The notes under the pieces are model-generated. The model was given only the letters and a program-made list of their open reading frames with translations. It was not told the DNA's origin and searched no databases. DNA of 38,329 nucleotides from a virus: the UHGV virus genome UHGV-1488451; one strand, written 5' to 3'. Positions 4,341 to 37,456 of the stretch are shown here, piece after piece (within the stretch, counting starts at the first letter, position 1; each line of letters opens with the position of its first letter). Both the position numbers and the translations under genes were made by a program.

Positions 4341-4383
4341 CAAAAAACGCCCCCGCAACCACCAACAACGGTGGCGCGGGGGC
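4341..4383 (-). terminator. Strong rho-independent terminator ending the late/lysis operon
   Basis: The minus strand reads gcccccgc..ccacc..ggtgg..gcgggggc followed by gttttttgcg. The stems are at 4349-4356 and 4376-4383. Confidence 0.8.
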
Positions 4384-4399
4384 GCATCTTCACAAGGGG

Positions 4400-4912
4400 C
4401 TAAACCTCATCACGAGCCTGCTTAGCAAGCTCCCGAATGTCCGCCTGAATTATCTGCGGAATCACCGGCAAATCATCCGGACGCTTACCCGGCCACTTCC
4501 TCGACGCCCATTCCTCACGAGCCGCGATATGCTTCACAGCCGTGCGGTGACGTTGGTTGATGTCCGTCATGCGGGTGGTCAGGTCGGTGATCTGGGTGTC
4601 TTGATTGGTTAGCTTGGTGTGCATGTCTGTGACTTGCTGTGCGAGCCGGTCATGTTGCGCGGTCACGGTGTTCAGGGTGGTTTCCATCACCCCGACGGTG
4701 GCGGTTAGGTTGTTCACAATTTGTTGTGACTCGTCCAAGACTAGGCGTCTTTCCTCCACCTTCCCGTCAGCGTGCCCTTTGCGGTGCGCTGTCCACGCGG
4801 CAAGAATCACACTCACAGCGGTGGCGATGCCACCCACCCAGCCAACGATCTCACTGATGCTCACGGCCTCAGCCACCTGCGGTGGCGGCATTTGTGCCGC
4901 CAACCACCACAT
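4400..4912 (-). CDS. Membrane-anchored coiled-coil protein, last gene of the lysis cassette (function unknown)
   Basis: 170 aa with an N-terminal TM segment (IVGWVGGIATAVSVILAAW) and a long heptad-like T/Q-rich helix. It follows the holin. Confidence 0.7.
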   Translation of the reverse strand: MWWLAAQMPPPQVAEAVSISEIVGWVGGIATAVSVILAAWTAHRKGHADGKVEERRLVLDESQQIVNNLTATVGVMETTLNTVTAQHDRLAQQVTDMHTKLTNQDTQITDLTTRMTDINQRHRTAVKHIAAREEWASRKWPGKRPDDLPVIPQIIQADIRELAKQARDEV

Positions 4913-4915
4913 GGC

Positions 4916-5263
4916 TTACCCCTGGTGAGAGTCAAACGTTGGAAGCGGTGCCTCCTGAGAAGCCGCATCAACTGCGGCTGCCTCATCAGACACACGCTCC
5001 ACAACCGACGGAGTGATGCTGCCCTTCATGGAAGCCTGAATGACAACACCTGCGGCACCTGCGATGACAGCCACGACAGCGGCAACATCAGCGGGCAGCT
5101 GGCCAGCCATGAGGCCAACAACACTCAGCACCTGCAGCACCGCCTGGGCAGCTGCGACCAGGGTGTTCTTGCGGCGCGCGAACCACGGCTGCTCAGCAAG
5201 CAGGTTCGTTGCGGCCTCTTCGATGATCTGCACGGACTTGGAATTCAGGTTATGGCGTGCCAT
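4916..5263 (-). CDS. Putative holin
   Basis: 115 aa with two hydrophobic segments (LVAAAQAVLQVLSVVGLMAG, VAAVVAVIAGAAGVVI). It lies immediately downstream of the endolysin with overlapping stop/start context. Confidence 0.65.
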   Translation of the reverse strand: MARHNLNSKSVQIIEEAATNLLAEQPWFARRKNTLVAAAQAVLQVLSVVGLMAGQLPADVAAVVAVIAGAAGVVIQASMKGSITPSVVERVSDEAAAVDAASQEAPLPTFDSHQG

Positions 5264-5264
5264 T

Positions 5265-6743: not shown

Positions 6744-6772
6744 ATTCACTCCTTTCGCTGTTGTTTGTGCTC

Positions 6773-9760
6773 CTACCCGTATTCGATGGGGAGGATGTAG
6801 TTTCCTTCACGACGCACCCATGCGATGGTTTCGCGCAGTACATCGGGGTCCGGTGCGTTGTCCCACGGGTTGTTCCATTCGGATTCACTACCCAGCTCAC
6901 CGGTGAATGTGTCAGTGGTGAGCCAGATTTGCCCAACGTTCGATACGCTGGCACGCTTGAGTACTTGTTTGGCCTGCTCAACATCGTTTACGTTGTGTAC
7001 CGCGTGCCAGAACCTCAGCGGGTTATGCCCTCTGTAGTGCCCAGGACAAATAGTCTCGTCGTCAATGTAGCGTTGCGCGGATTGTTCGAAAGCCATGAGC
7101 GTATCCGCCGCACCCAGCATGCCCTCAACAGTGTTGCCGCCCGGGTTCGCTGTGATGTAGAAGGCGCTTCCGTACTTTTTGCGGAGTTCCTGGTACAGCG
7201 TTACATAGCCTTGCACTTTGTTTGCCTGGTCGCCCCAGCCATTGACAGCCTCATCAAGGAACACACCGTGAATACGGTGACGCCCGTACCAGTCTATGAA
7301 CTGGTCGATCTCCTTGATGATCTCGGAGTGGCTGCGACCGCCCCACTGGGTGAGCACGTAGGCGATGTTGACCATGCCGAGCGCCGCAGTGGTGGTTAGC
7401 GTCAACTCGTAGTCGTTCTCTTTCTTCGTGCCCACACCACTATGAGGGTTGGCGATGAACGGCCCTGCGATCTGCGGATTGTGAAGGTAGTTGGCGGTGA
7501 CGTCGCGCGCGTGCTCAACCGCCTCCCAATATTTAGGCCAAGAATAGGTGACCGGCGCAAGCCTGCGTGCCCCACGCGTCCACAACTGGAATGGGTGAAT
7601 ATGCAAACCAGGGGTAGGCCCCTCGCGGGTTTCCAACGCTTTCAACAAAGGCGAAGCCTCACTAGCCGCCGGAGCAGGCGCGGGCGCGGGAGGAAGTTTC
7701 TTCAACCGCTCATCAACAACCTCACCAGCCAAAACCCGAACACGCTCCTCATCAGGCTTATCAAGAAGCTTCTTCCACTCCTCAATCGTGATGATCATAT
7801 CCGGGCGCGCCGGGTTGAAATTCCCATTGAAGATGAAATCCTTCTTCACAGTGCCTTCCTGGGCGTTGTTACCAATGATGGTGTTGCCGCCAACCTGCTC
7901 CTTCTTCGTTCCCTTGCGCAACACAATCTTCACCATGTGCGCGCAGTCAGCCTTGGGGTTGTCCTGCGCGTAGCTGTTGCCAATGACGGTGCAGCCGATG
8001 GGGTCTTCCAGTGCGACGGCCGCCCAGTCTTTAGGGCCGTCTGCGGGTGGGCGTAGTTGGTTTTCAAGGCCCACGTTCCAGATGTCGTTGCCTTGGATTT
8101 TTGTGCCGTGCCCGGAGCAGGCGATGCCGTGGTTCCAGGTTTCGCCGATGGTGTTGGCCATGACCACGCTGTACCCGCCCACGCTGATTCCGTTGTCCTT
8201 GGACACGGGGAGCATGTTGCCGGTGATGTTCGTGCGGTAGCACTTGATGGTGAAGCCGATAGGCTCGAAAGCGATTGACTGGTTCTCGGCCATGACCACA
8301 CTGTTCCCAGACACGAGGGTGTCTTTCGGTGCGCCCTGAATCAATGTCTCAGGCCGCAAAGCCGGGTCGGTAGTATCACGCCCACCAATGCCCATGCCGC
8401 AGGATGCGCGGCGAATCTGGTTGCCAATGATCTGGTTGCGGTTCGACTCGTCTTTGATCATGATGCCGAACCCGGATGCACCCTCCTGCGCCGTGTTCTG
8501 CTTCAAACCGCTACCATCAGTCCAGCAGTTCAGAACCAGGGAATCGTTCGTTCCGTTGCCGGTTGGCTTCTCTTTCCGCACAAACCCCTGCAAAAGGAAC
8601 GCATTTGCGCCGGAGTTCATGACCCCGATCTGAACCATCTTCACGTAATCAGCGTTCGTGATCTGCAGCGCCGTGGCAGGCCGCTCACCCGTCACCCAGT
8701 CCATGTCGATAACAAACCCGGACATGTAGCCGCGCCGCAGATTGCCGCCACTGGTTGACTGCATGGCGTTCTTCCCGACGCCGCGTTTCATCTTCAACAC
8801 CGTGGCGTCACCCTGCCCCATCATGACCTTGCCGGAAAGCTTGTCGAGGTTAATCGTGTTCGACAACCCCCACTCACCAGCAGGCAACTGGATTACCTTC
8901 TTCGACGCGTCGTTAATGGCTGCCTGCAAAGCAGTGGTGATGTCAGTGCCCTCGGCTGGTTTGACGTTGATGACACCAGCATCACCTGCGGCTGTGACGA
9001 TTTCCTTGATCTGGGTTTCCACCAGCTTCGTAACAGCCTTGTTGACTTCCTCGGAGATCTTGTTTCCAACTGCCTGCTGGATAGCCTCAGGTGTGGGGGC
9101 CGCGCCACCGCCGCCTTGCGGGTGTTGCCGGAAGTATTCTTCCACGGCCTTGCCGATTTTCTCCGGGTCAACGCCTTCGCCTGCGGGGAGCTTCCCGATT
9201 TGCCTAGTGATCTCGTCACGCACCAGGCCGCTGAGGTCGTTCATTGCCTGCTGCACAGCGTCCTGGGAGGCTGCGCTTGCGGCTTGTTTCGCCTGGTTGA
9301 CGGCTTCGCGTGCTTCGTCTCGTGCGGCGATGGTGTCTTTCTTCACCTGCTCAACCGTGCTTGCCGCCTGCTGTGCTTGGGTGACGGCTTCTTCGGCTTT
9401 GCGTTTGCTTTCCGACGCGGCGGTGGCTGCCTGCTGCGCTTCACCCACGACAGCGGGCGGGTACTCTGTTTGCGCGCCGATCAGGTTGGCTAGGTTCGCC
9501 TCACCTGATTCAGGCAGTGTCACAGTCCACGAGGTTCCATGCACAGTGCCGCCTTCAAGCGTCACTGTGACAGGCCCGGGGAACATGTCAGGGCTGCGGA
9601 AAACCCCACCGGTGCCTTCCATGTGGATTCGCCGCAGTTCCCGCGTGACCACCGTTCCACCCTCGACACGTTCACCCGATGACTGCAGCACCACATAGCA
9701 GTCAGGGCCGTCAAAAGGTTGCTTGGTGATGCTCTTCAAATCACCAGTCAAAATAGTCAT
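6773..9760 (-). CDS. Tail fibre/spike with coiled coil, pectate-lyase-like beta-helix and C-terminal spherulin-4 (GH135-like) domain
   Basis: The central region (VIQLPAGEWGLSNTINL...MGQGDATVLKM... with repeated G-N-x-I/V turns) resembles a right-handed beta-helix. The C-terminal part (FIANPHSGVG...VNIAYVLTQWGGRS...IDWYGRHRIHGVFLDE) fits the Spherulation-specific family 4 pattern. Start ATG 9760 follows taggaaggtgcta; the track ATG at 9781 abuts a terminator T-run and lacks an SD. Confidence 0.8.
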   Translation of the reverse strand: MTILTGDLKSITKQPFDGPDCYVVLQSSGERVEGGTVVTRELRRIHMEGTGGVFRSPDMFPGPVTVTLEGGTVHGTSWTVTLPESGEANLANLIGAQTEYPPAVVGEAQQAATAASESKRKAEEAVTQAQQAASTVEQVKKDTIAARDEAREAVNQAKQAASAASQDAVQQAMNDLSGLVRDEITRQIGKLPAGEGVDPEKIGKAVEEYFRQHPQGGGGAAPTPEAIQQAVGNKISEEVNKAVTKLVETQIKEIVTAAGDAGVINVKPAEGTDITTALQAAINDASKKVIQLPAGEWGLSNTINLDKLSGKVMMGQGDATVLKMKRGVGKNAMQSTSGGNLRRGYMSGFVIDMDWVTGERPATALQITNADYVKMVQIGVMNSGANAFLLQGFVRKEKPTGNGTNDSLVLNCWTDGSGLKQNTAQEGASGFGIMIKDESNRNQIIGNQIRRASCGMGIGGRDTTDPALRPETLIQGAPKDTLVSGNSVVMAENQSIAFEPIGFTIKCYRTNITGNMLPVSKDNGISVGGYSVVMANTIGETWNHGIACSGHGTKIQGNDIWNVGLENQLRPPADGPKDWAAVALEDPIGCTVIGNSYAQDNPKADCAHMVKIVLRKGTKKEQVGGNTIIGNNAQEGTVKKDFIFNGNFNPARPDMIITIEEWKKLLDKPDEERVRVLAGEVVDERLKKLPPAPAPAPAASEASPLLKALETREGPTPGLHIHPFQLWTRGARRLAPVTYSWPKYWEAVEHARDVTANYLHNPQIAGPFIANPHSGVGTKKENDYELTLTTTAALGMVNIAYVLTQWGGRSHSEIIKEIDQFIDWYGRHRIHGVFLDEAVNGWGDQANKVQGYVTLYQELRKKYGSAFYITANPGGNTVEGMLGAADTLMAFEQSAQRYIDDETICPGHYRGHNPLRFWHAVHNVNDVEQAKQVLKRASVSNVGQIWLTTDTFTGELGSESEWNNPWDNAPDPDVLRETIAWVRREGNYILPIEYG

Positions 9761-9781: not shown

Positions 9782-9816
9782 AAAAACAAGGCACCCAACT
9801 TGATTAGTGAGTGCCT
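9782..9816 (-). terminator. Hairpin plus T-run between the minor tail genes and the fibre gene
   Basis: The minus strand reads aggcac-(16 nt)-gtgcct tgttttta. The stems are at 9789-9794 and 9811-9816. Confidence 0.55.
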
Positions 9817-10568: not shown

Positions 10569-10570
10569 GA

Positions 10571-20795: not shown

Positions 20796-20883
20796 GGCAG
20801 ACCCCTTCCAAAGTCTCACAAGCAGGCCAAACAACAAAAGGTTGGTGGGGGCGGGCCTGCCAAACACTCCCCCACCACCACCT

Positions 20884-20914: not shown

Positions 20915-20947
20915 CAAGAAACCGGGGATTCGAACAACAATCAGACG

Positions 20948-21865: not shown

Positions 21866-21932
21866 TTGTTTTCCTCCTGTTGCGGAATGCCCCACCCGGG
21901 TTTCGGATGGGGCGTAGATTTGCTTACTTTCT

Positions 21933-22337: not shown

Positions 22338-22338
22338 C

Positions 22339-23478: not shown

Positions 23479-23489
23479 CCCACACCTCC

Positions 23490-23723
23490 TTACTCGGCGG
23501 CCTCAGCCTCAGCATCAGTAGTGTCTGCGGCTGCGGCTGCTTTCTTGGTTGTACGTTTCGGGGTTGCCTCCACTGGCTCAGTAACCTCAGCCTCCGCCGG
23601 TGCCGCAGAGGAATCATCCTCAACCAGCACAGCATCAGGGAAATCACGCTGCTGGTGAATCTCAGTCAGCAGCAGCACCGTCTCAAACCCATCATGAAAC
23701 GTCACACGATACGGACGCAACAT
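23490..23723 (-). CDS. Small hypothetical protein after the capsid gene (Ala/Glu-rich tail)
   Basis: 77-aa ORF tightly coupled to the capsid stop. Confidence 0.55.
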   Translation of the reverse strand: MLRPYRVTFHDGFETVLLLTEIHQQRDFPDAVLVEDDSSAAPAEAEVTEPVEATPKRTTKKAAAAADTTDAEAEAAE

Positions 23724-23725
23724 GA

Positions 23726-27310: not shown

Positions 27311-27323
27311 CAGAAATCACCTC

Positions 27324-28943
27324 CTAAACAATCAACAAATAATCATCATCACTATCATCTTCACCAGCGTAAATATCATCGAAATCAGGCTCCTCACCCC
27401 CAAAGAAATCCTCATCCGCATACGCCGAACGCCGCTCCTCAGGCTCATGCCCAAGCAACCACCACGCCACATTGCACGCCACCAAAGGCGAAACATCATT
27501 ACGACTACCCGACCTATCCCAAATGAACAGGTCACCAGCCTTCTTATCCTGCGCACCCTCAACAGCCAGATCAAGAACAGGCTGCGAACGATGCCGAAGC
27601 TCACCAGTCGCAATCGCATCAAAAAACCCAAGCACAGACGAAGACATATCCCCACCCTGCCAAGGCACCACCGTCAAACCAGCCTCCTCCAACAACGGAG
27701 CCAAACCAGCAGCCGGAGCACCCTTCACCTGCATTGCTACACGACCATCAAACCAATCGACGGCCCCAACACGAGCTGCGAACCACTCGGCAACCCATCT
27801 AAAACCGGCTCGTTGGGCGACGACTTCAACGTGCGTTCGCCCATCATCACGAACACCAGCGACCGCGACATAGGCGAACTTGCCGTCCACCGCGACATCA
27901 ACCGCCGCCGCCACAGGATTCCCCTCCGCAACACGGGAACCAGCATCAGCGCAAGCACCCCACACGTCAGCAGGAATCTTCCCCGGCTCCAGGGACTCCA
28001 CCCACACACACATTTTCTCAGTGCGGAAACCATCGGGATTCTTCGTCTCCTTCGCCTCAGCCAACAAATTCTTCAAAGTGATGCCGCCCCAACCCATCGA
28101 CGGGTTAGCCTGACGCAGCGCATCAACGTCCGTTATCTCCGCGTCCTGCGACGCTGACCACGAGAACAACGCCGTGGCCATGTCCTCAGTGTCCCCAAGG
28201 TTGATGCGCTCAACCGCTGAATCACGCAGGGATTTCAGCACAATCGAGCGGGCGTCACCAGCGTTGGAGAACCCCCACAATTGCGACTCTGGGCGCGCCG
28301 CAATGGTTGGCTCAATCGAGTTCCAGCCGTCCCACGTAAGCAGCTCACGCATCTCATCAATGAATGCCGTGTCAGCCGAAGCTGAACGCCCACCTTTACG
28401 GTCAGCAGTAGTCACCGACCATGTGGGCAAAGTGCCGAACACATCCAAGCGGCCAGGCACAGGAACCTTGCACAACTCAATCTGCTTGCTACCGTTCGTT
28501 TCCCGCATCCAAGCGCCGTTGAACTCGTTGTCCTTCGGCCTCGGGTCGTTCGGCAAGTACTCACGTAGCACCTCATTATGAGCGGCGATCTTAAACGCGT
28601 CTTTCAACGTGTCCTCAGCAACAGTAAGTTTCTGAGCTGCGGAAACAATCTCCGATGCGCCGAACACAAACAAACGCCACAAGCCGATCACAACCATCAG
28701 CGTTGTCTTGCCGTTCTGGCGGGCCACCTCAACTATGACGCGCTTAAACCGGAAGTCAGTGCCGTCGAGGTTCAGTTCCAGGCCGTGAATCAACAGCCAT
28801 TTTTGCCACGGGTACAGGCGAATACCTAGGAACTCCGCAAACTCAATGGCCTCAAACCCCTTCGACGTCTCCGGGGTTAGTGGGCGCAACGGCGGGGGAA
28901 ACAGGCGCGGCTGCTCGAAGCCCTTAACCTGCTCGACCACCAC
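27324..28943 (-). CDS. terL: Terminase large subunit
   Basis: 539 aa with an ATPase Walker A-like VARQNGKT, a Walker B-like AFIDE, and a C-terminal nuclease region. Confidence 0.93.
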   Translation of the reverse strand: MVVEQVKGFEQPRLFPPPLRPLTPETSKGFEAIEFAEFLGIRLYPWQKWLLIHGLELNLDGTDFRFKRVIVEVARQNGKTTLMVVIGLWRLFVFGASEIVSAAQKLTVAEDTLKDAFKIAAHNEVLREYLPNDPRPKDNEFNGAWMRETNGSKQIELCKVPVPGRLDVFGTLPTWSVTTADRKGGRSASADTAFIDEMRELLTWDGWNSIEPTIAARPESQLWGFSNAGDARSIVLKSLRDSAVERINLGDTEDMATALFSWSASQDAEITDVDALRQANPSMGWGGITLKNLLAEAKETKNPDGFRTEKMCVWVESLEPGKIPADVWGACADAGSRVAEGNPVAAAVDVAVDGKFAYVAVAGVRDDGRTHVEVVAQRAGFRWVAEWFAARVGAVDWFDGRVAMQVKGAPAAGLAPLLEEAGLTVVPWQGGDMSSSVLGFFDAIATGELRHRSQPVLDLAVEGAQDKKAGDLFIWDRSGSRNDVSPLVACNVAWWLLGHEPEERRSAYADEDFFGGEEPDFDDIYAGEDDSDDDYLLIV

Positions 28944-29232
28944 CGGCCGCCTTCATACGCTCCATCACCGAAACAACCGCCACAGGGCGGTCACGGTCCT
29001 CAGGAATTCCCCGCGCCTCCGGCGTGCACCCCAACGCCCCCAACGCCTTCAACAAATGAGGCCCCAAATACAACGCCTTTGTGCGGTCATACCCAGCATC
29101 AACAGGCACGAAATCAATCTGCCGAGCATACGACAGCGCCAGCTCCTGCAATGCCTTATCTGCACCGGTGACGTTCTCGCCACGCGCCTCAATTGAATCA
29201 AGTACAGCCTGTTCAAGCGGCCCAACAGTCAT
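28924..29232 (-). CDS. terS: Terminase small subunit (position-based)
   Basis: 102 aa from ATG 29232 (SD ggaaggag). It overlaps the terL start by 20 nt. The track start at 29319 lacks an SD. Confidence 0.7.
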   Translation of the reverse strand: MTVGPLEQAVLDSIEARGENVTGADKALQELALSYARQIDFVPVDAGYDRTKALYLGPHLLKALGALGCTPEARGIPEDRDRPVAVVSVMERMKAAGGGRAG

Positions 29233-29364
29233 GATTAAAGCTCCTTCCAGAAACCAGGTCTTGCGCGCGCGATACCCCCAAAAACGAGTGGGGGGAGAGG
29301 ACAGGCCCACCCGGCTCAAATGTCCTGGTCAGGTGTGCTGGTGATTTGCTACCCCCTACCGTTG

Positions 29365-29649
29365 TTACCAGGTTTGGCTGGGTTGTCCGAGGGTTGGTTG
29401 GGGTGGTTGGTTGTGGCGTGCGCGGTTGCAGTTGGTGTGTGTTGGTTTGATGTTGTTGGGGTCGTTTTCGAGGTGTGGGTGTGTGCTTGTGGGGTGGATG
29501 TGGTCGAGGTCGCATGCGTTTGGGGTGTGTGGTGGTGCGGTGTAGTCGATTGGTTGGCCGCAGAGGTAGCAGGGGGTGTTGTTTTCTGCGTGTTGTTGGC
29601 GGAGTTGTTGGCGGAGTTTTTTGTTTGCGCGGGTTTCTTTGAATGGCAT
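29365..29649 (-). CDS. HNH endonuclease (terminase-associated type)
   Basis: 94 aa with CYLCGQPI...DLDHIHP...NIKPTHTNCN. It lies adjacent to the terminase genes, as in cos-type HK97-like phages. Confidence 0.88.
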   Translation of the reverse strand: MPFKETRANKKLRQQLRQQHAENNTPCYLCGQPIDYTAPPHTPNACDLDHIHPTSTHPHLENDPNNIKPTHTNCNRARHNQPPQPTLGQPSQTW

Positions 29650-29669
29650 GGGGTTTTGGGGGTTGATAT

Positions 29670-29700
29670 GGGTAAACCCCCATGCTTTTTGGCATGGGGG
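29670..29700 (-). terminator. Rho-independent terminator separating the early/middle genes from the HNH-terminase late block
   Basis: The minus strand reads cccccatgc-caaaaa-gcatggggg followed by tttaccc. The stem is 9 bp. Confidence 0.7.
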
Positions 29701-29740
29701 TTGTCTGCGACTGAGTTTAGCAGTGTGGTTGCCCGTTTTG

Positions 29741-30310
29741 TCAATGTGACAGTTTTTTATCTATGTCTGTTTGTGAGTATTTGAGTGTGCCGTCGAGGCT
29801 GTGGTGTGCTCTGATGTGTCCTCGTGCTCTCCAGTGGTGGATTTGTTTGCGGGTGATGTTGTGGCCTTGTTGCCATGCGTGGTCGATGGCTTGTTGGATG
29901 GTGAGCCATTGGCCGTGGGGGTTGATGGGTGGTTCGCGGTGGTGGCGTTGGGTGAGGTCTTGTTCGATGGTGCGTAGTCCTTGTTCGATGGTGTCGGGTT
30001 CGGGGTGGTGGTTGATGAGGTGGGTGTTGTGGCTGAGCCAGGTGCACCAGCGTGAGAGTGGTTGGTTGGCTGCGCTGGCTGGGAGGTGGATGTTTGCGTG
30101 TTTGAGGATTTGGTGGATGATGTCGCGGAGTTCGTCTTCGGTGGTGATTTTGTTTTCGAGTTGGGTGAGGTTGAGGGGTGGGCGTGGTCCGGGGGTGGTG
30201 TGGCCTCCTTCTTTGGGGATGGTGGAGTCGATGTGTGTGGGGTGGAGGTCGGTTTCGAGTTCGTGGGTGAGGGTGGCGAGGTTGGTGAGGATTTTGTTGA
30301 TGGTGATCAT
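29741..30310 (-). CDS. Hypothetical protein with C-terminal MerR/excisionase-type HTH
   Basis: 189 aa. The C-terminus WLTIQQAIDHAWQQGHNITRKQIHHWRARGHI...YSQTDI fits HTH_17-like proteins. The composition is His/Thr/Pro-rich. Confidence 0.6.
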   Translation of the reverse strand: MITINKILTNLATLTHELETDLHPTHIDSTIPKEGGHTTPGPRPPLNLTQLENKITTEDELRDIIHQILKHANIHLPASAANQPLSRWCTWLSHNTHLINHHPEPDTIEQGLRTIEQDLTQRHHREPPINPHGQWLTIQQAIDHAWQQGHNITRKQIHHWRARGHIRAHHSLDGTLKYSQTDIDKKLSH

Positions 30311-30558
30311 GGTTTGGGTTCTTGGAGTTCTTTGGTGGCTTTGGTGGTGAGGATGATGGAGCCGTAGGTGTCGAAGGCTAGGTATCCGTGGTCGATGAGG
30401 ATGTTGGTCATGGTGTGGTTGATGCGTTTGCCGGAGGCGAAGCGTCGGAGGGCGTTGATGTGGTTGGGGGTCATTGGTTTGTGTCTTTCTTGGTGGTGAG
30501 GTGGGTGATTGTTCCGGGGTGGGTGAGGGTGCTTATGGCGGTGGTGATGATGATGCAC
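30307..30558 (-). CDS. Small hypothetical protein (start uncertain: 30558 or 30474)
   Basis: The 83-aa ORF has a first 28 aa (MHHHHHRHKHPHPP...) that may be untranslated leader. The ATG at 30474 gives a 55-aa product. Confidence 0.5.
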   Translation of the reverse strand: MHHHHHRHKHPHPPRNNHPPHHQERHKPMTPNHINALRRFASGKRINHTMTNILIDHGYLAFDTYGSIILTTKATKELQEPKP

Positions 30559-30574
30559 GCGATGATGGTGAGGG

Positions 30575-31108
30575 TCATTGTTCGTCTTTCTGGATTTCGT
30601 ATCGTTCTTCTTGGTGGTCGCGTTCGAGCCTGTCTGCGCGTTCCCAGTCTGGGAGGGTGTCGTCGTTGGTGTCGTCGTGGGGGTAGGGGTGTGCCATGTG
30701 GGTTTCTTTCTGGGTGAGGTGGATGTGTGCGCCGGGTGTTTCGCCGGGGTGTGCGTAGCGTTTGTGGGTTATCCAGGTTGTGATTTGGCTGTCGTCGTTG
30801 ATTGCTCCTGATTGGGTGAGGGCGTCGCCGAGGGCGCGTTGTAGTTTGTCGAGGTCGGGGGTTTTGGTGTGTGGTTCGGTTTTGTTTTTGAGGCGTTTGG
30901 GGCGGGGGAAGATGAAGATTGCGGTGATGGTGATTGGTCCTTGGATTGGGGGTTTGTGGTTGTGGGTGAGGGTTGCGGTTTGGGTGAGGGCTTTGCGCCA
31001 GGCGGGTAGGTGTTTGCTGGATTCGATACTGCGGCCGCCGCCGATGTAGCGTTTGGAGCCTTGGGGTCTGGGGGTGCCTGGGGTGAAGAATGTGAGCGTT
31101 TGGGTCAT
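30575..31108 (-). CDS. rusA: RusA-family Holliday junction resolvase
   Basis: 177 aa with FFTPGTPRPQGSKR...PDLDKLQRALGDALTQSGAINDDSQI, typical RusA motifs. Confidence 0.88.
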   Translation of the reverse strand: MTQTLTFFTPGTPRPQGSKRYIGGGRSIESSKHLPAWRKALTQTATLTHNHKPPIQGPITITAIFIFPRPKRLKNKTEPHTKTPDLDKLQRALGDALTQSGAINDDSQITTWITHKRYAHPGETPGAHIHLTQKETHMAHPYPHDDTNDDTLPDWERADRLERDHQEERYEIQKDEQ

Positions 31109-31238
31109 TGGAACATGCTTTCTATGTGGGGGTGGTGGTTTGTTTTGGGTTGGGGGTGGGTGTTATTTTCGCGCGTGAGGCTTGGGGCGGGTTGGTGGCG
31201 CCTGGTGGCCTGTTGGGCGGAGCGTGGTCACAACAGTC

Positions 31239-32378
31239 TCAAAACGGGGGTTTTGCGGCGTTGGAATTGCCGAACCATACACGACTACCCGCCGAGGGGT
31301 TTTCGGGCGTGTGAGGCGGCAATGAGGGCGGATTTGGGGCATTCTCGTTTCGTCTGGCCGCCCGGAGTTGAGCGTATTCCGGTGGGAGGTCCACCGGCTC
31401 GGGGGGTGTCCGATGGTCGCATTTGCGGGCTACGCTGCGGTTTTCCGGCGAATCCGGGTCGATTCCTCGGGTCGGGACCAGGACAAAACCCCGCTCGTCG
31501 CACCACGGGCAAGCGTCGATTTCGGCGCGTCGTGCCTGCTTGGCTTGGGTTTTCTGGTCCTGGAACCAGCGTCTGGCGGCTGCGCAGGCCCCGCAGGGTG
31601 GCACCTGGTCGCGTGGCAGCCCGGCGTGTTCGCGGCATCGGGGGTCATCCGGCGTGGACCAATCGGCGGGTGTGTCGCCGGTCACGGTTGGGGTGTTGGG
31701 GGGCGGCGCGTCAGCGGCCGCCGAACCCTGGTCGAAACTCGGGGCGGGGGCGTGTGCGCTTGCGCTCTCGCTCGGAAGATTTTCTCTCTTAAGCTCCCCT
31801 TTATTGGTATTGGTCGGGCGCAGGTCCGGGCGCGCGCGTCGCGCGCGAGGAGTGGACATGCGGGTGGCGTCCGGGGTGGACATTTCGGCGTTTTCGCTGG
31901 TAGAGGAAAAATCGCTCGACCTATTCGGATTCATTTCGTTTTCATTTCGATTTCGATTCGCGTTCGATTCGGATTCATTTCGATTTCGATTCGGATTCAT
32001 TTCGCGTTCGGATAGGTCGAGCCTCCCTGTTTCAGTATCGGCGTTGCAGCCCCTCCTGCGGGCCTTTGACTCGCGTTCAATACGGCGTCGATTCGAGCGT
32101 TGTTCGCGGGTCTGCTGATAGTCCCCCCAGTCCCTAAAAGTGAACACGATCACACCATTTTCATTGACTGATTGCGTCCACAACCCCGCATCAACAAGCG
32201 CCTGAATCTGAACCGCGCTCCCCCGCAAAGCCCGCACCTGCTGACGAGGAATCACCCCATCAGTCTCAAATTCAGCGCACCAACTCCCAGCCTTCGCCCA
32301 TAAACCCACCGCAGCATTAGGAAGGGAGGAAATCTTAGGATGCGCATGAAAACGGTCGTCAATCATGAACCAGCTCAT
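31239..32378 (-). CDS. Putative replication initiator / DNA-binding protein with internal iteron-encoding low-complexity linker and Cys-rich C-terminus
   Basis: About 379 aa from ATG 32378 (MSWFMIDDRFHAHPK...GLWAKAGSWCAE... wHTH-like N-terminus). The linker is NPNRNRNESESNANRNRNENEMNPNR, and the C-terminus carries CGAC...CPWC motifs. Confidence 0.65.
   Translation of the reverse strand: MSWFMIDDRFHAHPKISSLPNAAVGLWAKAGSWCAEFETDGVIPRQQVRALRGSAVQIQALVDAGLWTQSVNENGVIVFTFRDWGDYQQTREQRSNRRRIERESKARRRGCNADTETGRLDLSEREMNPNRNRNESESNANRNRNENEMNPNRSSDFSSTSENAEMSTPDATRMSTPRARRARPDLRPTNTNKGELKRENLPSESASAHAPAPSFDQGSAAADAPPPNTPTVTGDTPADWSTPDDPRCREHAGLPRDQVPPCGACAAARRWFQDQKTQAKQARRAEIDACPWCDERGFVLVPTRGIDPDSPENRSVARKCDHRTPPEPVDLPPEYAQLRAARRNENAPNPPSLPPHTPENPSAGSRVWFGNSNAAKPPF
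31923..32010. repeat. Iteron-like repeats with 22-bp phasing (candidate origin of replication inside the replication gene)
   Basis: The 16-mer attcggattcatttcg occurs at 31923, 31967 and 31989 (spacing 44 and 22 nt). Degenerate copies and two cgcgttcg motifs lie between them. Confidence 0.6.
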
Positions 32379-32540
32379 TACGCACCGAGTCCAACATTCA
32401 AGCAGACAACACTGATTGACCTGCACGTTTCCTTATCCAGGAACAAGCCGTACCGGCGAACAGCGAAAATGGCGATGCCTTGCGGCGTGAACAAATTCAC
32501 CCATTCAGGTTTCGGGGCATTCATTTCCCTTATCTTTCAT

Positions 32541-32575
32541 CAAAACCACCCCCACAACACACGCTGCGGGGGTGG
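32541..32575 (-). terminator. Rho-independent terminator after ssb
   Basis: The minus strand reads ccaccccc-(14 nt)-gggggtgg followed by ttttg. Confidence 0.7.
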
Positions 32576-32590
32576 CAAAAACAAATACTG

Positions 32591-33028
32591 TTAGAACGGA
32601 GGTTCGCCCGTATCCTGCGGGGTGGCCGGGGGTGAAGAACCCCACGCGCCCCCCTGCTGAGAAGGCGCATACCCAGGGCGCGCCTGCGAACCAGCAACCT
32701 CAACATCAGCCACAGACTGCAACGCATCAACCGCCATGACCTTAATCATCGACCGTTGACTACCGTCCTTGGCTTCCCACTCCTCAGTGACCAGCTTTCC
32801 AACCACCGTGACCTTAGAACCCTTCCTCAGGTAGGACATTGGTTCAGCAGCCTCACCCCACAAGGTGACTTGGATGAACAACTGGTTTGTGGTCTCCCAC
32901 TCACCAGTCGGGGTTTTCCTGCTGTCGGAGCACGCGAGGCGGAAGGTGCTGCATGGTTTGCCGTTGGAGGTGAACCGGAGTTCAGGGTCGCTGACCAGTC
33001 TTCCGGGGAAATGCTGGTACGGAATCAT
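32591..33028 (-). CDS. ssb: Single-stranded DNA-binding protein
   Basis: 145 aa with OB-fold motifs (GRLVSDPELRFTSNGKP...VTLWGEAAE), a Gly/Pro/Gln-rich tail and a terminal acidic EPPF tip. Confidence 0.92.
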   Translation of the reverse strand: MIPYQHFPGRLVSDPELRFTSNGKPCSTFRLACSDSRKTPTGEWETTNQLFIQVTLWGEAAEPMSYLRKGSKVTVVGKLVTEEWEAKDGSQRSMIKVMAVDALQSVADVEVAGSQARPGYAPSQQGGAWGSSPPATPQDTGEPPF

Positions 33029-33894
33029 GGCATGCCTCCCTCGGCTTCGGCCGCGAGGGCTTCCATCTCAGCAAGGGTGTTGTAGCGCTCACTGTAGGCG
33101 TGCTCTGCGGCTTCGCGCTGCGGGTGATCGGCGGGGATTCCCCTGGCTTGCTCGGCCACCGTGTTCAGGTCGTCGATGCTGGCTGCGGTGTTGAATGCCG
33201 CGATGATGCTGTCAACGTCGATCTGTGGTGCCTGCTTGGATTCGAGGGCGGCTTTCACGCCTGAGGCGCCGCGCTGCTGGCGGGGCTTGTCGAGGCGTGT
33301 GGCCTTGGCCTGCACGCGGCTTTCCTCGAGCTGCAAATCCTCAGCCGTGTAGGTGATTCCCAACAACACGTCGGGGGCCAGTTTGCGGCACACCTCGGAT
33401 AGTGCCTTGGCGTAAAGCATGGCTTGCGGGTCGCTTTGGTACTTCTTGTTTGAGGTGTAGCCTGCACGCTTTGCCCGGTCGATGGTCCATGTACTGGTTT
33501 CCTGCTCACCCTTCGGCGAGGTTCCAGTCACCGTGACGCTTTCATCTGTGGACTCAATGGTGTCAAACCTGTAGCCGCGCGCCTTCAAAAGCCCAGACAT
33601 AGTGCGCGCGTAGATCGCGGGTGTGCCGTGCACAACGAAAATCTGCTGCAGGGACTGCAGGGGCTTCAACCCCAATTCAGCACCGTAGAGTATTGCCGCT
33701 GCTCCGTTTTCCGGCTTGCCCTTGTAGGTCTGTGGCACCATGTCGGTGCTGCACAATGCCACCGCTAGTTTGTGGGCGGTTTCCATTGCCTGTGCTTGCC
33801 GCATTAGCAGGTCTATGGCGTCGTCACTGACGTCGCCGGTGGGCATTACCTCAGCCTCGGCGGGTGGGGTGATGCGGTCGATTTCCTGGCTCAC
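33025..33894 (-). CDS. recT: RecT-family single-strand annealing recombinase
   Basis: 289 aa with VPQTYKGKPENGAAAILYGAELGLKPLQSLQQIFVVHGTPAIYA, typical of RecT. Confidence 0.88.
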   Translation of the reverse strand: MSQEIDRITPPAEAEVMPTGDVSDDAIDLLMRQAQAMETAHKLAVALCSTDMVPQTYKGKPENGAAAILYGAELGLKPLQSLQQIFVVHGTPAIYARTMSGLLKARGYRFDTIESTDESVTVTGTSPKGEQETSTWTIDRAKRAGYTSNKKYQSDPQAMLYAKALSEVCRKLAPDVLLGITYTAEDLQLEESRVQAKATRLDKPRQQRGASGVKAALESKQAPQIDVDSIIAAFNTAASIDDLNTVAEQARGIPADHPQREAAEHAYSERYNTLAEMEALAAEAEGGMP

Positions 33895-34322
33895 TGGTTG
33901 CCCTCCTTATTGGGGTTTACGACGTAGATTTCGTAGCCTCGGCCGTAGAACCCGTTGTCTTCGTAGCCTTTGGCGGTGATGATTTCGGTGGCCTTGACTT
34001 CAGACTCTGCCCACACGAACACTCGAACGATGTGGTCGCCGATTGCGTTGTAATCCTGGGTGAGGTCTTCTTCGGCGATCTTCACGCCGGTGATTGCATG
34101 GTCGTAGGGCGCAAGGCGGCTTATCCACCAGTTCCCCGCGCTGCAGCCTCCGCAGCCCTCGTTGCCTACGGTGTAAAGTCGGACACCGTTGTCGAGGATG
34201 AGGGCTTCATCGTCGTCATCGACTTCAACGATTTTACGGCCGATGAGAAGTTCTTTGAGGTCTTCGAGGCTTTCACCATCGATTTTCTTATCCCAGTCGC
34301 CTTCGTAGTGGTTGAAGGTCAT
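33891..34322 (-). CDS. Hypothetical protein (143 aa, CGGC motif)
   Basis: ORF with the SD aaaggag, lying between the exonuclease and recT. I recognise no family. Confidence 0.6.
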   Translation of the reverse strand: MTFNHYEGDWDKKIDGESLEDLKELLIGRKIVEVDDDDEALILDNGVRLYTVGNEGCGGCSAGNWWISRLAPYDHAITGVKIAEEDLTQDYNAIGDHIVRVFVWAESEVKATEIITAKGYEDNGFYGRGYEIYVVNPNKEGNQ

Positions 34323-34579
34323 TGTTCAAGCTCCTTTGCTTCCGTAATGCCGTCTTTGGTGAGCAGGTGGGTTACACCACGGGGGTGGTTGTCCATGTTG
34401 ATTGCGGCGGGCTGGAAAATCCCCACCCATTCGCCGCTTATGTGCTTTTTCACCAGGTCTTGGCACTGCATGTACGTTTCGGCCTGCACCGCCAAGATCA
34501 TGTCAGGGTGGGCGGGCGCCCACTCAGGGTGCGTGTTTTTACGGTACTTCTCGTGAAATATCACGTAAAGGGTTTTCAT
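34319..34579 (-). CDS. Hypothetical protein (86 aa)
   Basis: ORF translationally coupled to its neighbours. I recognise no family. Confidence 0.55.
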   Translation of the reverse strand: MKTLYVIFHEKYRKNTHPEWAPAHPDMILAVQAETYMQCQDLVKKHISGEWVGIFQPAAINMDNHPRGVTHLLTKDGITEAKELEQ

Positions 34580-35586
34580 AGCTTTGCTTTCAGGTTCGGG
34601 CGCAGCATGACCCCACCGCGTGAGGTTGCTGCGCGGGTAGCGATGGTGGTTTCACCCATGAGGGCTTTTTTGGCGTTGCCCATGCGGTCAAGCAGCCTGG
34701 TTTTCGCCGCTGTCGCTGCCTGCGCGGCGGCTTTCTCCATGCGCAGGGCGGTGAGGATTTCTTCGGCCTCGGCAGGGGTGAGCTGCACTTCCTCATCCGG
34801 GTTGATGTCCGTATGCAGGCCCCGCACTGTTTGGTAGGTGCTGGTCGTGTCATCAAGCGGCGGCGGAGTGTCTTCCTGCAGGGATGCCCACCAGCCTTTG
34901 GCCACGTCCACCAGCCCGTCGAACAGGTCAGCGTCCCAGGGGATTTCATGTTCCTCGGCTTGGTGGAACGGCCCCAGCACAAGAACACTTGCCTGGTGAA
35001 TGCCGCTGACTCCCATTTGCCACACCACTTGCGTGTGGTAATCCGCTGGCACACTGTCTGGTTCGCCGGGTTTCCCCCAGTCGTCGAGGCTTCTAGCGGT
35101 TTTGCATTCCAGGATTCGGAATGCCCTGCCCCTGCGTGCCCTGCGGTCGAGTGTGGCCAGGTTGGGGAATGGCAGGTCATCACGGGTGTAGGCGACTTCC
35201 CCGGCGTTTAGTTGCCATGTTTTGGGTTGGCGGCGTGCCCACCAGTCAGCTAGCGCCAACTCGGCGGCGTGCCCCCAGTCCGCAATGTCTTGTTTCATCG
35301 GGGTTGGCGGGATTCGGCCGGCCATTTCGTGCCACAGGGTGTATTGGCTGGTGAATCTGCTGACTCCGAGGATTGCTGGGATTTTCGACGCGGTGATCAT
35401 TCCCCGCCATTCGTCGGAGCCTGGCGGCGGGGGATTCTTGACGGTTCGGCTTGTCATCGTCACAGCACCAGGATTAGCGACAGTGTGAAGATCAGGGTGC
35501 ATAGCGCACCGAGGATTGCGATGCTGATGACTGGTGGTGGTTCTTGGAATCGTTGTGGGGGTTTGCGGTGGGTCATAGTAGTTCAC
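34576..35586 (-). CDS. YqaJ/lambda-exonuclease-like PD-(D/E)xK recombination exonuclease (start uncertain)
   Basis: GSDEWRGMITASKIPAILGVS...WGHAAE...LDRR...ILECKT motifs are present. The N-terminal ~45 aa of the track ORF look like low-complexity leader; the internal Met at aa 44 is possible. Confidence 0.85.
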   Translation of the reverse strand: MNYYDPPQTPTTIPRTTTSHQHRNPRCAMHPDLHTVANPGAVTMTSRTVKNPPPPGSDEWRGMITASKIPAILGVSRFTSQYTLWHEMAGRIPPTPMKQDIADWGHAAELALADWWARRQPKTWQLNAGEVAYTRDDLPFPNLATLDRRARRGRAFRILECKTARSLDDWGKPGEPDSVPADYHTQVVWQMGVSGIHQASVLVLGPFHQAEEHEIPWDADLFDGLVDVAKGWWASLQEDTPPPLDDTTSTYQTVRGLHTDINPDEEVQLTPAEAEEILTALRMEKAAAQAATAAKTRLLDRMGNAKKALMGETTIATRAATSRGGVMLRPNLKAKL

Positions 35587-35848
35587 CTACTTCGAATGTG
35601 CGGTCAATGTATTTGGTGGGGTTGAGTACGACATCGGCTAGGGTGTCGTGAAAGCCGCAGAGGAACAGGTCACTGTCCGGGGCTTGTTTGCGGTCGCAGC
35701 CGGTGTAACAGCATGTCTTCTCCTCTGCCCCTGGTTTTGGGCAGGGGTTGGGGGCTAGCATGAGTTCGATTTTCCGGCGGATTGCGGCTACCCTGCTCGG
35801 GGCTATTACCCTGCGCCCTGGGCGTTGGGGTGCCTCGTCGTCTAGCAT
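35573..35848 (-). CDS. Small Cys-rich hypothetical protein
   Basis: 91-aa ORF with C-x-(7)-CC-x3-C...C-x2-H, possibly zinc-binding. Confidence 0.55.
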   Translation of the reverse strand: MLDDEAPQRPGRRVIAPSRVAAIRRKIELMLAPNPCPKPGAEEKTCCYTGCDRKQAPDSDLFLCGFHDTLADVVLNPTKYIDRTFEVGELL

Positions 35849-35985
35849 GCTGTGAGGTCTTCCATGTGCAGCACGTCTATGAGGTTAACCAGGGCGTTTT
35901 TGATGTTCTGGTTGCTGTCGATCTCCGGCTGGTACACCTTGTGGAGGATGTGCACGGCGTCTTGGAGCTGTTCGAGTTTGCTCAT
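35842..35985 (-). CDS. Small hypothetical ORF (47 aa), not in the track
   Basis: It fills the gap between neighbouring genes. The product is MSKLEQLQDAVHILHKVYQPEIDSNQNIKNALVNLIDVLHMEDLTAC. Its stop overlaps the next ATG (atgctag). Confidence 0.45.
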   Translation of the reverse strand: MSKLEQLQDAVHILHKVYQPEIDSNQNIKNALVNLIDVLHMEDLTAC

Positions 35986-35988
35986 CAC

Positions 35989-36249
35989 TTATCCCACCCA
36001 CTCCCTGGCCATGAGGCCGAGCATGAACGCGACCAGCACCATCGCCCCGATGCTGAGTGCCCCGAGGATTTCCCCCACGGTCATTTCCTCATTGGTGGAG
36101 CCGTGTTTCGGTGCGCGGCTTTCGCGTTCGGTGAGCACCCCAACCGCGCGGGCAAGCGCGGTTTCCGGGTCGTTTTCTTTCGCCCTCATGGCTTGCCCCG
36201 CAGGGTGCCGAAGACGGGCAAGCTCATACTCAAACTGCTTATCGGTCAT
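35989..36249 (-). CDS. Small protein with C-terminal transmembrane segment
   Basis: 86 aa with the SD gaaggaa. The C-terminus ILGALSIGAMVLVAFMLGLMA is hydrophobic. Confidence 0.6.
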   Translation of the reverse strand: MTDKQFEYELARLRHPAGQAMRAKENDPETALARAVGVLTERESRAPKHGSTNEEMTVGEILGALSIGAMVLVAFMLGLMAREWVG

Positions 36250-36473
36250 GCTGTTTCCTTCATGTATTCAATGGCTGTGCGGTAGCTGATCAGGATGCGC
36301 GCTCCGGGGCGGCGTTGGCTTGCGGGGAGTTCGCCGGAGCGAATCAGGTTGCGGATGGTGCTGTGGTGGAACCCGGTTAGCCTGCAGAACTCTCCGACGG
36401 TGAGCCATGTTTTCTTTTCCCCGAACAGGGCTTCAATGTCGTCGAGGGTTTGCTTTTCGATTTGGTCTAGCAT
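36246..36473 (-). CDS. Excisionase-family helix-turn-helix DNA-binding protein (early operon)
   Basis: 75 aa. WLTVGEFCRLTGFHHSTIRNLIRSGELPA...ILISYRTAIEYM matches the excisionase-type HTH pattern. Confidence 0.75.
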   Translation of the reverse strand: MLDQIEKQTLDDIEALFGEKKTWLTVGEFCRLTGFHHSTIRNLIRSGELPASQRRPGARILISYRTAIEYMKETA

Positions 36474-37390
36474 TAGTTGCTCTCCTCAAACATGTCGTTG
36501 ATTGCGAAGAAGCCTTGGTTGCGTTCGATTGGGAGGTTTTTGCGTTCCCCGATGTTTTCCCGCCGGACTGTGACCGTGCCGAAGCAGTCGCCGTTGTTGG
36601 CGACGAATGGTGTGAGGGTGCTTTCGGTTGAGGTGGTGAGGATGGTGGCGTCTTTGATGTGCTTGATGCGTGTGGTGTTGATGCGCATTGGGGGCACAAT
36701 ATCGGGGGCTTTGGCGTTGAATGCGGCTTGCGCTCGGTGGATTACACCATCAATCCAGTCGTGTTTGCTTGCCCGGAACACGCGGTATTTCATTTGGTGT
36801 TTGGTTGCGGCGATGAGTTTACGGCGCGTGACGAACAGGGTGATTGACTGTTTTGATTTGGGGATTTTCGCCACCCATGTGTTGAGGATGTGCAGCTCTT
36901 CGGCGGGTAGCAGGATTTCCGTGTCGTGTGGGAGGCTGTCGTCAAGCATCCCCACCCTGTGTGTCACTGTGACGTTTTTATCTGTGGCGATGATGAACGC
37001 CTCGGAGTCCTTCACTATGAGCTTCATCTGCTGAACTTCATCATCCCCGTCGGTTTCCTTCGACGTCGCAACCGGATACACCGCAGCCAAAGCCTGCTTC
37101 AAAACCGGCTGCTCGCACCGCACAATCGCAAACCCGCGATCAAGGTTCTTGTCCTCCAGATCGCCCCGGAGAACCGCCCACTCGAACACCCCTTGCAGGT
37201 GCTCGAAGCGCGCGTCGATGAACTGCTTGCACTCGTCAGGCAGCATGCCGCGTTCAATCAGTTTGCCGGGGTTGTTCATCACCCATTGTTGAATGATCTT
37301 CTCGATGTCTTCGGTTTGGATGTTGAGCTTTGGGTATGCGCTTCGGAAGGCTTCGAGTGTTTCTTCGGTGGTGTAGGTATAGTGGGGCAT
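36473..37390 (-). CDS. Hypothetical early protein (305 aa); weak by-eye resemblance to a sliding-clamp-like repeated beta domain
   Basis: ATG 37390 follows a strong SD (ccaaggaggagaca). The track start at 37495 overlaps the terminator. The functional guess is low confidence. Confidence 0.6.
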   Translation of the reverse strand: MPHYTYTTEETLEAFRSAYPKLNIQTEDIEKIIQQWVMNNPGKLIERGMLPDECKQFIDARFEHLQGVFEWAVLRGDLEDKNLDRGFAIVRCEQPVLKQALAAVYPVATSKETDGDDEVQQMKLIVKDSEAFIIATDKNVTVTHRVGMLDDSLPHDTEILLPAEELHILNTWVAKIPKSKQSITLFVTRRKLIAATKHQMKYRVFRASKHDWIDGVIHRAQAAFNAKAPDIVPPMRINTTRIKHIKDATILTTSTESTLTPFVANNGDCFGTVTVRRENIGERKNLPIERNQGFFAINDMFEESN

Positions 37391-37407
37391 TGTCTCCTCC
37401 TTGGAGT

Positions 37408-37456
37408 CGAAAAGGGCACCTGAACCAGTGATTGGCGTTACAAGTTTCAGGTGCCC
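37408..37456 (-). terminator. Strong rho-independent terminator early in the early operon
   Basis: The minus strand reads gggcacctgaa-(21 nt)-ttcaggtgccc, an 11-bp perfect stem at 37414-37424 and 37446-37456, followed by ttttcgac. Confidence 0.8.

Follow-up and report, generated by a model that had tools for sequence, protein, structure and literature searches.

The virus genome UHGV-1488451, a stretch of 38,329 nt that is called the window here in its full length, carries its lytic genes as one co-directional minus-strand array of ~35 kb, interrupted by hairpins that resemble intrinsic terminators. A sequence-only reading had listed five of these (T1–T5) and compared two of them with phage lambda terminators. 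The present analysis concerns the third, T3, together with the gene and the promoter-like site in front of it. The features of this locus are the following:

29741 to 30310, minus strand: gene of a 189-amino-acid (aa) protein, candidate late regulator, the last gene before the packaging module.
29714 to 29744, minus strand: candidate late promoter, with -35 TTGACA (29744-29739), a 19-nt spacer and extended -10 TGcTAAACT (hexamer 29719-29714).
29674 to 29702, minus strand: T3, AACCCCCATGC-caaaaa-GCATGGGGGTT then T(ACC), the tail being merely TTTACC.
29365 to 29649, minus strand: HNH endonuclease gene, 94 aa (MPFKETR...), without a Shine-Dalgarno (SD) sequence.
29233 to 29364, minus strand: HNH-TerS non-coding gap of 132 nt, probable cos region.
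27324 to 29232, minus strand: TerS (29232-28924) and TerL (28943-27324), matching Pfam Terminase_6 and TerL_ATPase, the start of the packaging and structural genes.

T3 had been placed before the HNH and terminase genes, and this position stands; the gene calls were mended, HNH being the 94-aa open reading frame (ORF) 29649..29365 and TerS starting at 29232. The HNH protein shares its N-terminus and position with the gp55 HNH of phage BFK20, and the sequence upstream of its start is aacccccaaaacccc (region 29650-29700). An annotated 3'-protruding cos site of BFK20 occupies the position equivalent to the HNH-TerS gap 29233..29364 of the window, which is probably the cos region.

Every gap of the array was scanned for TANNNT, the core -10 of actinobacteria, taking the best -35 at a spacing of 16-19 nt. 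The sole good promoter-like site in any of them is TTGACA-19 nt-TGcTAAACT at 29744-29714, upstream of T3. The -35 of this site and the stop codon of the 189-aa gene overlap, and the predicted transcription start lies ~5 nt before the T3 hairpin. Hairpin folds were compared each with 200 dinucleotide shuffles (z-scores) and scored by the d'Aubenton-Carafa discriminant (d), where d>0 denotes a terminator by a threshold trained on E. coli. T3 (29700-29677) folds at -20.7 kcal/mol with z -4.8 and has d -0.7; the plus strand scores d +4.4. Within the 5' arm of T3, the ATG at 29695 begins a spurious ORF of 160 aa in a different frame.

The same locus was compared in 13 genomic contexts of the 189-aa protein family (L052, L143-L152, BFK20, and phi673). 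In 13/13 no gene other than morons or tRNA genes stands between the family gene and the packaging module. The trio of family gene, promoter-like site and hairpin with T-run occurs in 12 genomes, namely the window and 11 of the 13 fetched contexts (L052, L143-L146, L148, L149, L151, L152, BFK20, and phi673); these are diverged corynephages, of which BFK20 and phi673 are cultured. The remaining two have a hairpin without promoter (L147) and a promoter followed by tRNA genes (L150). The promoter precedes the hairpin in 12/12 modules, never the reverse. The -10 TANNNT is invariant, most modules have the extended-10 TG, and the hairpin lies 8-35 nt past the -10. A TTGAC-type -35 is found in five modules (window, L152, L148, BFK20, and phi673), in all of them at 19-nt spacing. 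No TANNNT was found between the -10 and the hairpin in the module sequences compared.

The hairpins of this late leader range widely as terminators. The highest d values are those of L151 (+31), L149 (+29), BFK20 (+19.9), L052 (+15.9), and L148 (+14), followed by L144 (+8.9), L143 (+7), phi673 (+4.8), L152 (+3.8), and L146 (+2), and two fall below 0, the window (-0.7) and L145 (-1.5). Every one beats its shuffles (z -3.1 to -6.8). Stems were compared by per-sequence folds, as inner stems differ in length and stand out of register in the MAFFT alignment. Stem interiors vary yet pair, for example ATGC/GCAT, TAGGGAC/GTCCCTG, GCGCAC/GTGCGAC, GGCAC/GTGC, AAGGCAAGGG/CCCTTGCCTT, and CCTGTGCC/GGTACAGG. 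The outer arms AACCCC/GGGGTT are conserved in sequence in 8/12 genomes with a spacing between arms of 14 to 20 bp, and the stems of BFK20 and phi673 are unrelated in sequence. As the stem sequences differ and stay paired, T3 is under constraint at the level of RNA structure.

The association of promoter and hairpin was set against a background scan of 116.7 kb of sense strand from the module loci, which gave 21 terminator-grade hairpins, 11 of the late-leader class. An upstream TANNNT, mostly with extended-10 TG, stands at 8-35 nt from 10/11 late-leader hairpins vs 1/10 others (a weak case), for which a one-sided Fisher test calculated by hand on classes defined post hoc gives p ~3e-4. The module also keeps its place: in L143, L144, and L146 it stays with the packaging genes, downstream of inserted morons. 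In some relatives the gp54-family gene is separated from the late leader or the packaging genes by SocA_Panacea and DUF3800 moron-like genes or by tRNA genes (L144 3662-4144, L146 3657-4106, L147 3751-4662, L150 ~1000-1300).

BFK20 is a cultured lytic phage of different overall architecture, with replication genes on the opposite strand, and its family gene adjoins the start of the late operon. The late strand has three terminator-grade hairpins: the late-leader hairpin, the annotated operon-end terminator, and a weak one (37408-37432, d -2.1) that lies opposite leftward replication genes, outside the late operon. Late-leader promoter and hairpin are unannotated in the BFK20 record, and a literature search found no paper on them. 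The published strong BFK20 promoter 'F1' was considered as the gp54-HNH promoter and rejected, since comparison with the published primers showed that the sequences differ. No module was found at the locus of the family member in 'Pasteurella phage' PMP-GADVASU-IND. On these comparisons T3 is the second half of a conserved late-operon leader, and not simply a terminator before terminase.

A motif, ACTGTCAC, lies 9-11 nt upstream of the late -10 in L143 (~2340-2365), L144 (~4535-4560), L145 (~3575-3600), and L149 (~1910-1935), with GTGTCAC in L151 (~3590-3610); in the window it is at 29746-29753, 26 nt upstream of the late -10. The helix-turn-helix (HTH) protein encoded there may bind to this motif.

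The 189-aa protein consists of an N-terminal helical bundle and a C-terminal Xis/MerR-like winged HTH. It matches phrog_12885 at 4.6e-22 and, by Foldseek, Gp54 of BFK20 (E 6e-6), and it has the family traits: a length of ~180-200 aa, GPxPP, WCxWL, and the C-terminal GHxV(T/S)xxxLRxWxxRGHI...Y. Exhaustive HMMER and profile searches put the family at ~30 proteins of 180-210 aa, with named members from Corynebacterium durum and C. macclintockiae; a word-indexed search with the 189-aa protein found one near-identical homolog, and a search of genome contigs found no match. The family is uncharacterised and has no assigned function. Searches of Pfam, PHROG and NCBIfam gave no similarity to Q, N, RinA/ArpU or sigma factors; the sequence-only reading had recognised no N- or Q-like protein either, and fold comparison agrees with it. 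The protein does not have the architecture of a MerR-type activator, the HTH being C-terminal, with no Pfam MerR match and no conserved dyad seen in the spacer.

The other hairpins of the array are these:

37410 to 37456, minus strand: T1, an 11-bp perfect stem with 21-nt loop and tail TTTTCGAC (TTTT), the next SD 17 nt on and ATG at 37390.
32538 to 32575, minus strand: T2, a 13-bp GC-rich stem with tail TTTTGATG, after ssb.
20832 to 20916, minus strand: tandem major-tail hairpins, 20916-20888 (tail TTTTAGG) and 20879-20840 (tail TTTTGTTGTTT).
9782 to 9816, minus strand: T4, an 8-10-bp stem with tail TTGTTTTTAT, in a 61-nt gap before the fibre gene (ATG 9781).
4341 to 4384, minus strand: T5, a 16-bp bulged GC stem with TTTTTTG, closing the lytic array behind the holin/endolysin-associated genes.

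All five hairpins of the sequence-only reading are present on the minus strand at the positions it gave, and fold better than their shuffles (z -2.8 to -8.0); its labels ssb, terminase, fibre and lysis are borne out by Pfam and PHROGs. It had called the hairpins canonical and strong, which is true of T2 (32575-32546; -31 kcal/mol, z -8.0, d +26.4) and T5 (4384-4348; -37 kcal/mol, z -6.4, d +49.9) and not of T3, T4 (9815-9790; -14.1 kcal/mol, z -2.8, d -5.6) or T1 (37456-37414; -22.4 kcal/mol, z -3.9, d -12.1). It had also overlooked the tandem hairpins (20916-20840), which lie in a true 152-nt gap 3' of the major tail gene, before the tail chaperone ATG 20795; the second, 20879-20840, has d +12.7, and the fold z of this site is just -1.6. 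A GC-rich stem-loop with U-tract and positive d is thus present at T5, T2, and 20879-20840. A simple terminator scanner listed 0/5 of T1-T5, because their loops or bulges exceed its rules. The array has few true intergenic gaps, and all six sites fall in them, on the sense strand.

The gap scan found no SigA-type promoter in the stretches that lead from T1, T2, the major-tail hairpins and T4 to the genes after them, and the 213-nt gap between T2 and rep has no TANNNT; this negative covers sigma-A-type promoters only, other types not being excluded by it. The multiple internal promoters that had been offered as an alternative to antitermination therefore find no backing, and the genes behind these hairpins need read-through. 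T5 is a plain end-of-operon terminator beside attP and integrase. T2 is a strong terminator inside the early region. The hairpins at T1, after the major tail gene and at T4 are weaker, and none is followed by a promoter.

T1 had been described as an 11-bp perfect stem after the first gene and likened to lambda tR1. The stem is as described, and the rest is weakened, since T1 is a sub-threshold terminator and the 81-aa HTH gene before it is not the first of the array, being preceded across the genome junction by a 242-aa beta-solenoid gene. The T1 hairpin, its 21-nt loop and the following SD are identical in the near relatives L129/L156/L157 (genomes ~96% identical), and the 30 nt directly 5' (37457-37486, HTH gene end and spacer) have 12 substitutions; being identical in the only available relatives, T1 is uninformative for covariation. 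T4 is kept in relatives of 94-98%, where a T-to-C change gives a perfect stem, and is absent in those of ~75%, which have a plain 60-nt gap instead; by this distribution it is lineage-specific. The gap 32378-32590 (213 nt, from T2 to the rep ATG 32377) is untranslated with no ORF >11 aa, and the rep start has no clear SD.

The window is the complete genome of a temperate Corynebacterium-type phage of ~38.2 kb. Its ends are duplicated (1-124 vs 38206-38329, 121/124 identical); as they overlap, the genome is circular (~38,205 bp assembly) and the window circularly permuted, and features near either end are therefore to be read across the junction. GC content is 57%. Judged by TerL, its nearest cultured counterparts are Corynebacterium phages (45-54% identity), megablast of the window against phage genomes found no close relative, and contigs near-identical to it come from human-associated metagenomes. 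Two genes lie on the plus strand, a repressor-like HTH gene and a tyrosine integrase gene, and everything else on the minus strand in the order YdcK-type beta-solenoid, 81-aa HTH, 305-aa gene, excisionase-type HTH, YqaJ exonuclease, RecT, SSB, replication initiator, RusA, 83-aa gene, 189-aa gene; then HNH, TerS, TerL, portal, protease, capsid; then major tail, chaperones, tape measure, minor tail, fibre, endolysin, holin, and a 170-aa gene. Further features are:

1161 to 1535, plus strand: repressor candidate, 124 aa, HTH, matching PHROG repressor/HTH families and weakly Pfam HTH_3.
3011 to 4135, plus strand: tyrosine integrase gene (Pfam Phage_integrase), convergent with the lytic array.
~4162 to 4192, read on the minus strand: attP core resembling a tRNA 3' end, with T-arm/acceptor-like sequence visible.
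ATG 222, across the junction, to stop 37699 (3' part 37699 to 38329), minus strand: YdcK-type beta-solenoid gene, 242 aa.
37482 to 37727, minus strand: HTH gene, 81 aa (phrog_638 transcriptional regulator, 4.7e-6).
971 to 976, minus strand: candidate early lytic -10, TATGAT, from a consensus-only promoter scan and weak.
964 to 992, plus strand: TTCACA-17-TATCTT site, back-to-back with the minus-strand -10, which would serve the repressor-like gene 1161-1535.

No full tRNA is detected by ARAGORN at the attP core. The 242-aa protein matches PF18836 (1.8e-18) and phrog_7964 (2e-65) and is built of 18-bp (6-aa) tandem repeats (tandem repeat 38008-38329). A short stretch of it is 83% identical to gene 64 of Mycobacterium phage Boilgate, and its frame is open upstream to ATG 606, the extension carrying a lytic-transglycosylase-like motif (ES...GLLQIIPGT). 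The region 223-1160, ~940 nt from the repressor-like gene to the first lytic gene, has no convincing ORF and an A/C-rich minus strand, and includes a plus-strand hairpin with T-run at 785-808. The replication-initiator gene holds ~8 tandem 11-bp repeats (ATTCGGATTCA / TTTCGATTTCG types, 31912-32032), probably iterons of an origin embedded in rep.

Over 1.9 kb of the minus strand, 29365..31240 (rep-RusA gap, RusA, 83-aa, 189-aa, and HNH genes), the mRNA strand has A 34%, C 43.5%, G 13%, and T 9%, and the skew flips abruptly at the HNH-TerS (cos) gap. Because of this base bias the strand is hardly able to form palindromes or RNA structure, and T3 is the only strong structure in the block. The skew is common to the L152 and L145 family genes and not to those of BFK20, L148, L149, and L151; it may stem from mutational bias, from a requirement that the mRNA be unstructured, or from avoidance of restriction sites at the cos-proximal end.

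Some candidates were rejected. A 13-bp palindrome, TGTCAMTGTGACA, considered as an operator- or stoperator-like set, has four sites of the form TGTCA(A/C)TGTGACA with <=1 mismatch (9560-9572, 21951-21963, 29739-29751, and 36962-36974; 10 strand-matches vs 2.2 expected), one copy overlapping the late-promoter -35. The sites are not retained in ~95%-identical relatives or at the other family loci, and are probably non-functional. A hairpin with a run of five T in the HNH-TerS gap (29313-29277) does no better than its shuffles (z -0.1, d -12.8) and is probably just part of the cos region. No significant structure vs shuffles was seen in the gaps 35849-35988, which a small ORF fills, and 31109-31238.

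The reading favoured here, if tentatively, is that the late leader follows the logic of lambda PR'-tR' and Q, run by a non-homologous factor. The late promoter would fire constitutively, and its transcripts (~33 nt in the window), together with read-through from the early operon, would stop at T3. Once accumulated, the 189-aa protein would render RNA polymerase started at the late promoter resistant to termination, and such polymerase would run past T3, the major-tail hairpins and T4 as far as T5. Promoter and terminator would both be active, with passage through the terminator controlled by the adjacent protein. This logic is favoured because the promoter comes first and the terminator second, the core elements are good, and the terminators are canonical in several relatives. 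With a perfect or near-perfect -35 and/or extended -10, the promoters look independent of an activator. The earlier likening of T3 to tR' is strengthened by the promoter found after the 189-aa gene and by the retention of the trio in 12 genomes. Antitermination is nevertheless read from the arrangement, with which leaky attenuation is equally compatible.

Leaky attenuation is the main rival, and a quite possible one. It has no antitermination: the hairpins would be partial terminators, or stabilisers of RNA 3' and 5' ends, that set dosage (major tail protein high; chaperone, tape measure, fibre, and lysis genes lower) and insulate the late genes from early read-through. The 189-aa protein would bind DNA and activate the late promoter, perhaps by re-phasing its 19-bp spacer in the manner of MerR-type regulators, and T3 would pass a fixed fraction of transcripts and shield the 5' end of the long late mRNA.

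Several observations weigh against the Q-like switch or speak for leaky attenuation. The window T-run is only TTT, and T1, T3, and T4 score at or below the terminator threshold in the window; the short TTTAC tail is kept in five genomes, which suggests modest termination; and the hairpin begins <=5 nt from the predicted start in about half of the modules, as a 5'-stabilising stem-loop needs. The 19-nt spacing behind the perfect or near-perfect TTGAC-type -35 of the window, L152, L148, BFK20, and phi673 fits MerR-like activation as well as it fits constitutive firing, and the C-terminal domain is the Xis/MerR-like winged HTH. T4 is unconserved beyond the near-identical lineage, and many intra-genome terminators are reported in the available parts of phage transcriptome surveys (PMC11512511, PMC9163698). 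The Q-like switch is further weakened by the shared descent of the module sequences, which are not fully independent, by the lack of a -10-like pause element between promoter and hairpin in the module sequences compared, and by the lack of sequence or fold similarity of the 189-aa protein to any Q family or N.

Leaky attenuation itself meets difficulty in BFK20, L149, L151, L052, and L148, where canonical terminators (d +14 to +31) stand right behind the sole candidate late promoter; they would be wasteful if read-through were unregulated. The core promoter elements are good, unlike those of typical activator-dependent late promoters, a 5' stabiliser has no need of a conserved T-run, and the HTH is C-terminal, with no MerR-type dimerisation/effector architecture found.

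That promoter and hairpin form a small-RNA gene, or a pure RNA-stability or processing element, with the late genes transcribed from elsewhere, is improbable. A promoter with hairpin and T-run 8-35 nt on is formally a gene for a ~35-65-nt RNA, and lambda 6S or StxS-type RNAs from PR'-tR' are a precedent, the terminated PR' transcript being a functional small RNA in Stx phages according to the available text of PMC7547250. In most modules, however, the RNA would consist of scarcely anything but the terminator hairpin, with no room for a seed region; the stem is unconserved in sequence, and no other candidate late promoter was found in the window gaps or before the BFK20 late genes.

Still less probable is a DNA-level palindrome, whether a site of the HTH protein or one related to packaging (cos) or replication. 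T3 is <350 nt from the probable cos region and its AACCCC/GGGGTT outer arms recur in 8/12 genomes, but their spacing varies (14-20 bp) and the inner arms co-vary, as expected of a folded single strand and not of a duplex site for a dimer; the BFK20 and phi673 stems are unrelated in sequence, and the annotated BFK20 cos lies ~400 nt further, past HNH. That the hairpins are functionless chance structures is very improbable: a permissive scan yields many weak hairpin-plus-T sites in a 57% GC genome and the simple scanner finds no excess (19 vs 21.8 in shuffles, 18330-38329), yet six/six sites fall in the scarce intergenic gaps on the sense strand, with z down to -8, and sites are conserved in relatives.

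A bolder proposal, and a rather doubtful one, is that the gp54/189-aa family represents Q-like processive antiterminators of a new class, with no structural relation to Q-lambda, Q21, or Q82. A gp54-family protein would then load onto RNA polymerase at the extended-10 or 19-bp-spacer corynephage late promoter, and the loaded polymerase would pass the promoter-proximal terminator and the internal terminators of the late operon. If true, Actinobacteria would, to our knowledge, have their first defined case of a phage-encoded switch that works by processive antitermination. Promoter-loaded antitermination would then have been invented independently once more, and C. glutamicum biotechnology would gain a compact, orthogonal on-switch. 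Should an activator and an attenuator be at work instead, the function-less family phrog_12885 would still gain a role. What matters is the conserved trio of uncharacterised HTH protein, late promoter and promoter-proximal terminator, the hairpin-broken co-directional array itself being ordinary. The trio is a concrete candidate for late-gene switch-on in corynephages, for which a literature search found no published mechanism, and perhaps in other actinophages. The model is directly testable, because BFK20 and phi673, phages of the genetically tractable Corynebacterium glutamicum, carry the module.

Among known systems, lambda N/nut and HK022 put resemble the early region in their read-through of tR1-like terminators in the early operon, the analogy that had been drawn for T1/T2. 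The difference is that no N-like protein was found in the window and that T1 follows the second or third gene, not the first. The put/nut-like RNA structures proposed for a search gave nothing firm: boxA-like matches in the window are at chance level (25 observed vs 19.7 expected), and an Rfam scan of the whole window at E<=1 gave only a spurious snoRNA match, the presence of a put model in Rfam being unconfirmed.

Late activators of the RinA, ArpU and LtrC types are encoded just upstream of terS in Gram-positive phages. They share with the window a small DNA-binding protein encoded directly before the packaging genes. The 189-aa protein differs in having no Pfam, PHROG or NCBIfam match to those families, a C-terminal HTH and a good -35/extended -10 in front of the late genes, and those systems have no terminator after the promoter. 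The 19-bp spacer of five corynephage modules recalls MerR-regulated promoters.

In mycobacteriophage L5, late transcripts begin close to the cos-proximal end and are ended by a strong stem-loop terminator in the gap beside the integrase gene (PMC5712189), and T5 of the window, beside attP/int, matches that terminator as it is described in the available part of the source. Late control in L5 is tied there to repressor 'stoperator' sites, and that part describes neither a promoter-proximal hairpin nor a gp54-like gene (PMC5712189). The conAn system of Gram-positive conjugative plasmids, in the available text, also has a very long operon with its genes in one direction and terminators inside it: a dedicated factor from the operon start lets RNA polymerase pass these, with differential expression and suppression of spurious transcription as further results (PMC8191782). 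It uses a large RNA element and a protein, whereas the corynephage leader is one hairpin and the proteins are unrelated.

A likeness in layout exists to the lambdoid Q systems (Q gene-PR'-qut-tR'; lambda, 82, 21, and Stx), in which, by the available text of PMC7547250, PR' is always active and is terminated immediately downstream in lysogens. As in the window, no other gene separates the regulator gene from the late genes, what looks like a strong late promoter comes right after the regulator gene, a terminator stands before the first late gene, and the late operon is long with further hairpins downstream; at the level of sequence, the order regulator gene, promoter, terminator, first late gene is found in the window and 11 further genomes. 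The differences are that the 189-aa protein resembles no Q family in sequence or fold, that no -10-like pause element was found in the initially transcribed region of the modules compared, that the host is an actinobacterium, and that the corynephage hairpin, at ~+5 to +28, is much nearer to the promoter than lambda tR'. The lambda 6S RNA, which extends to tR', measures 194 nt. Set beside these systems, the late-leader module and its protein family are an undescribed variant of a known regulatory logic within an array of ordinary phage architecture.

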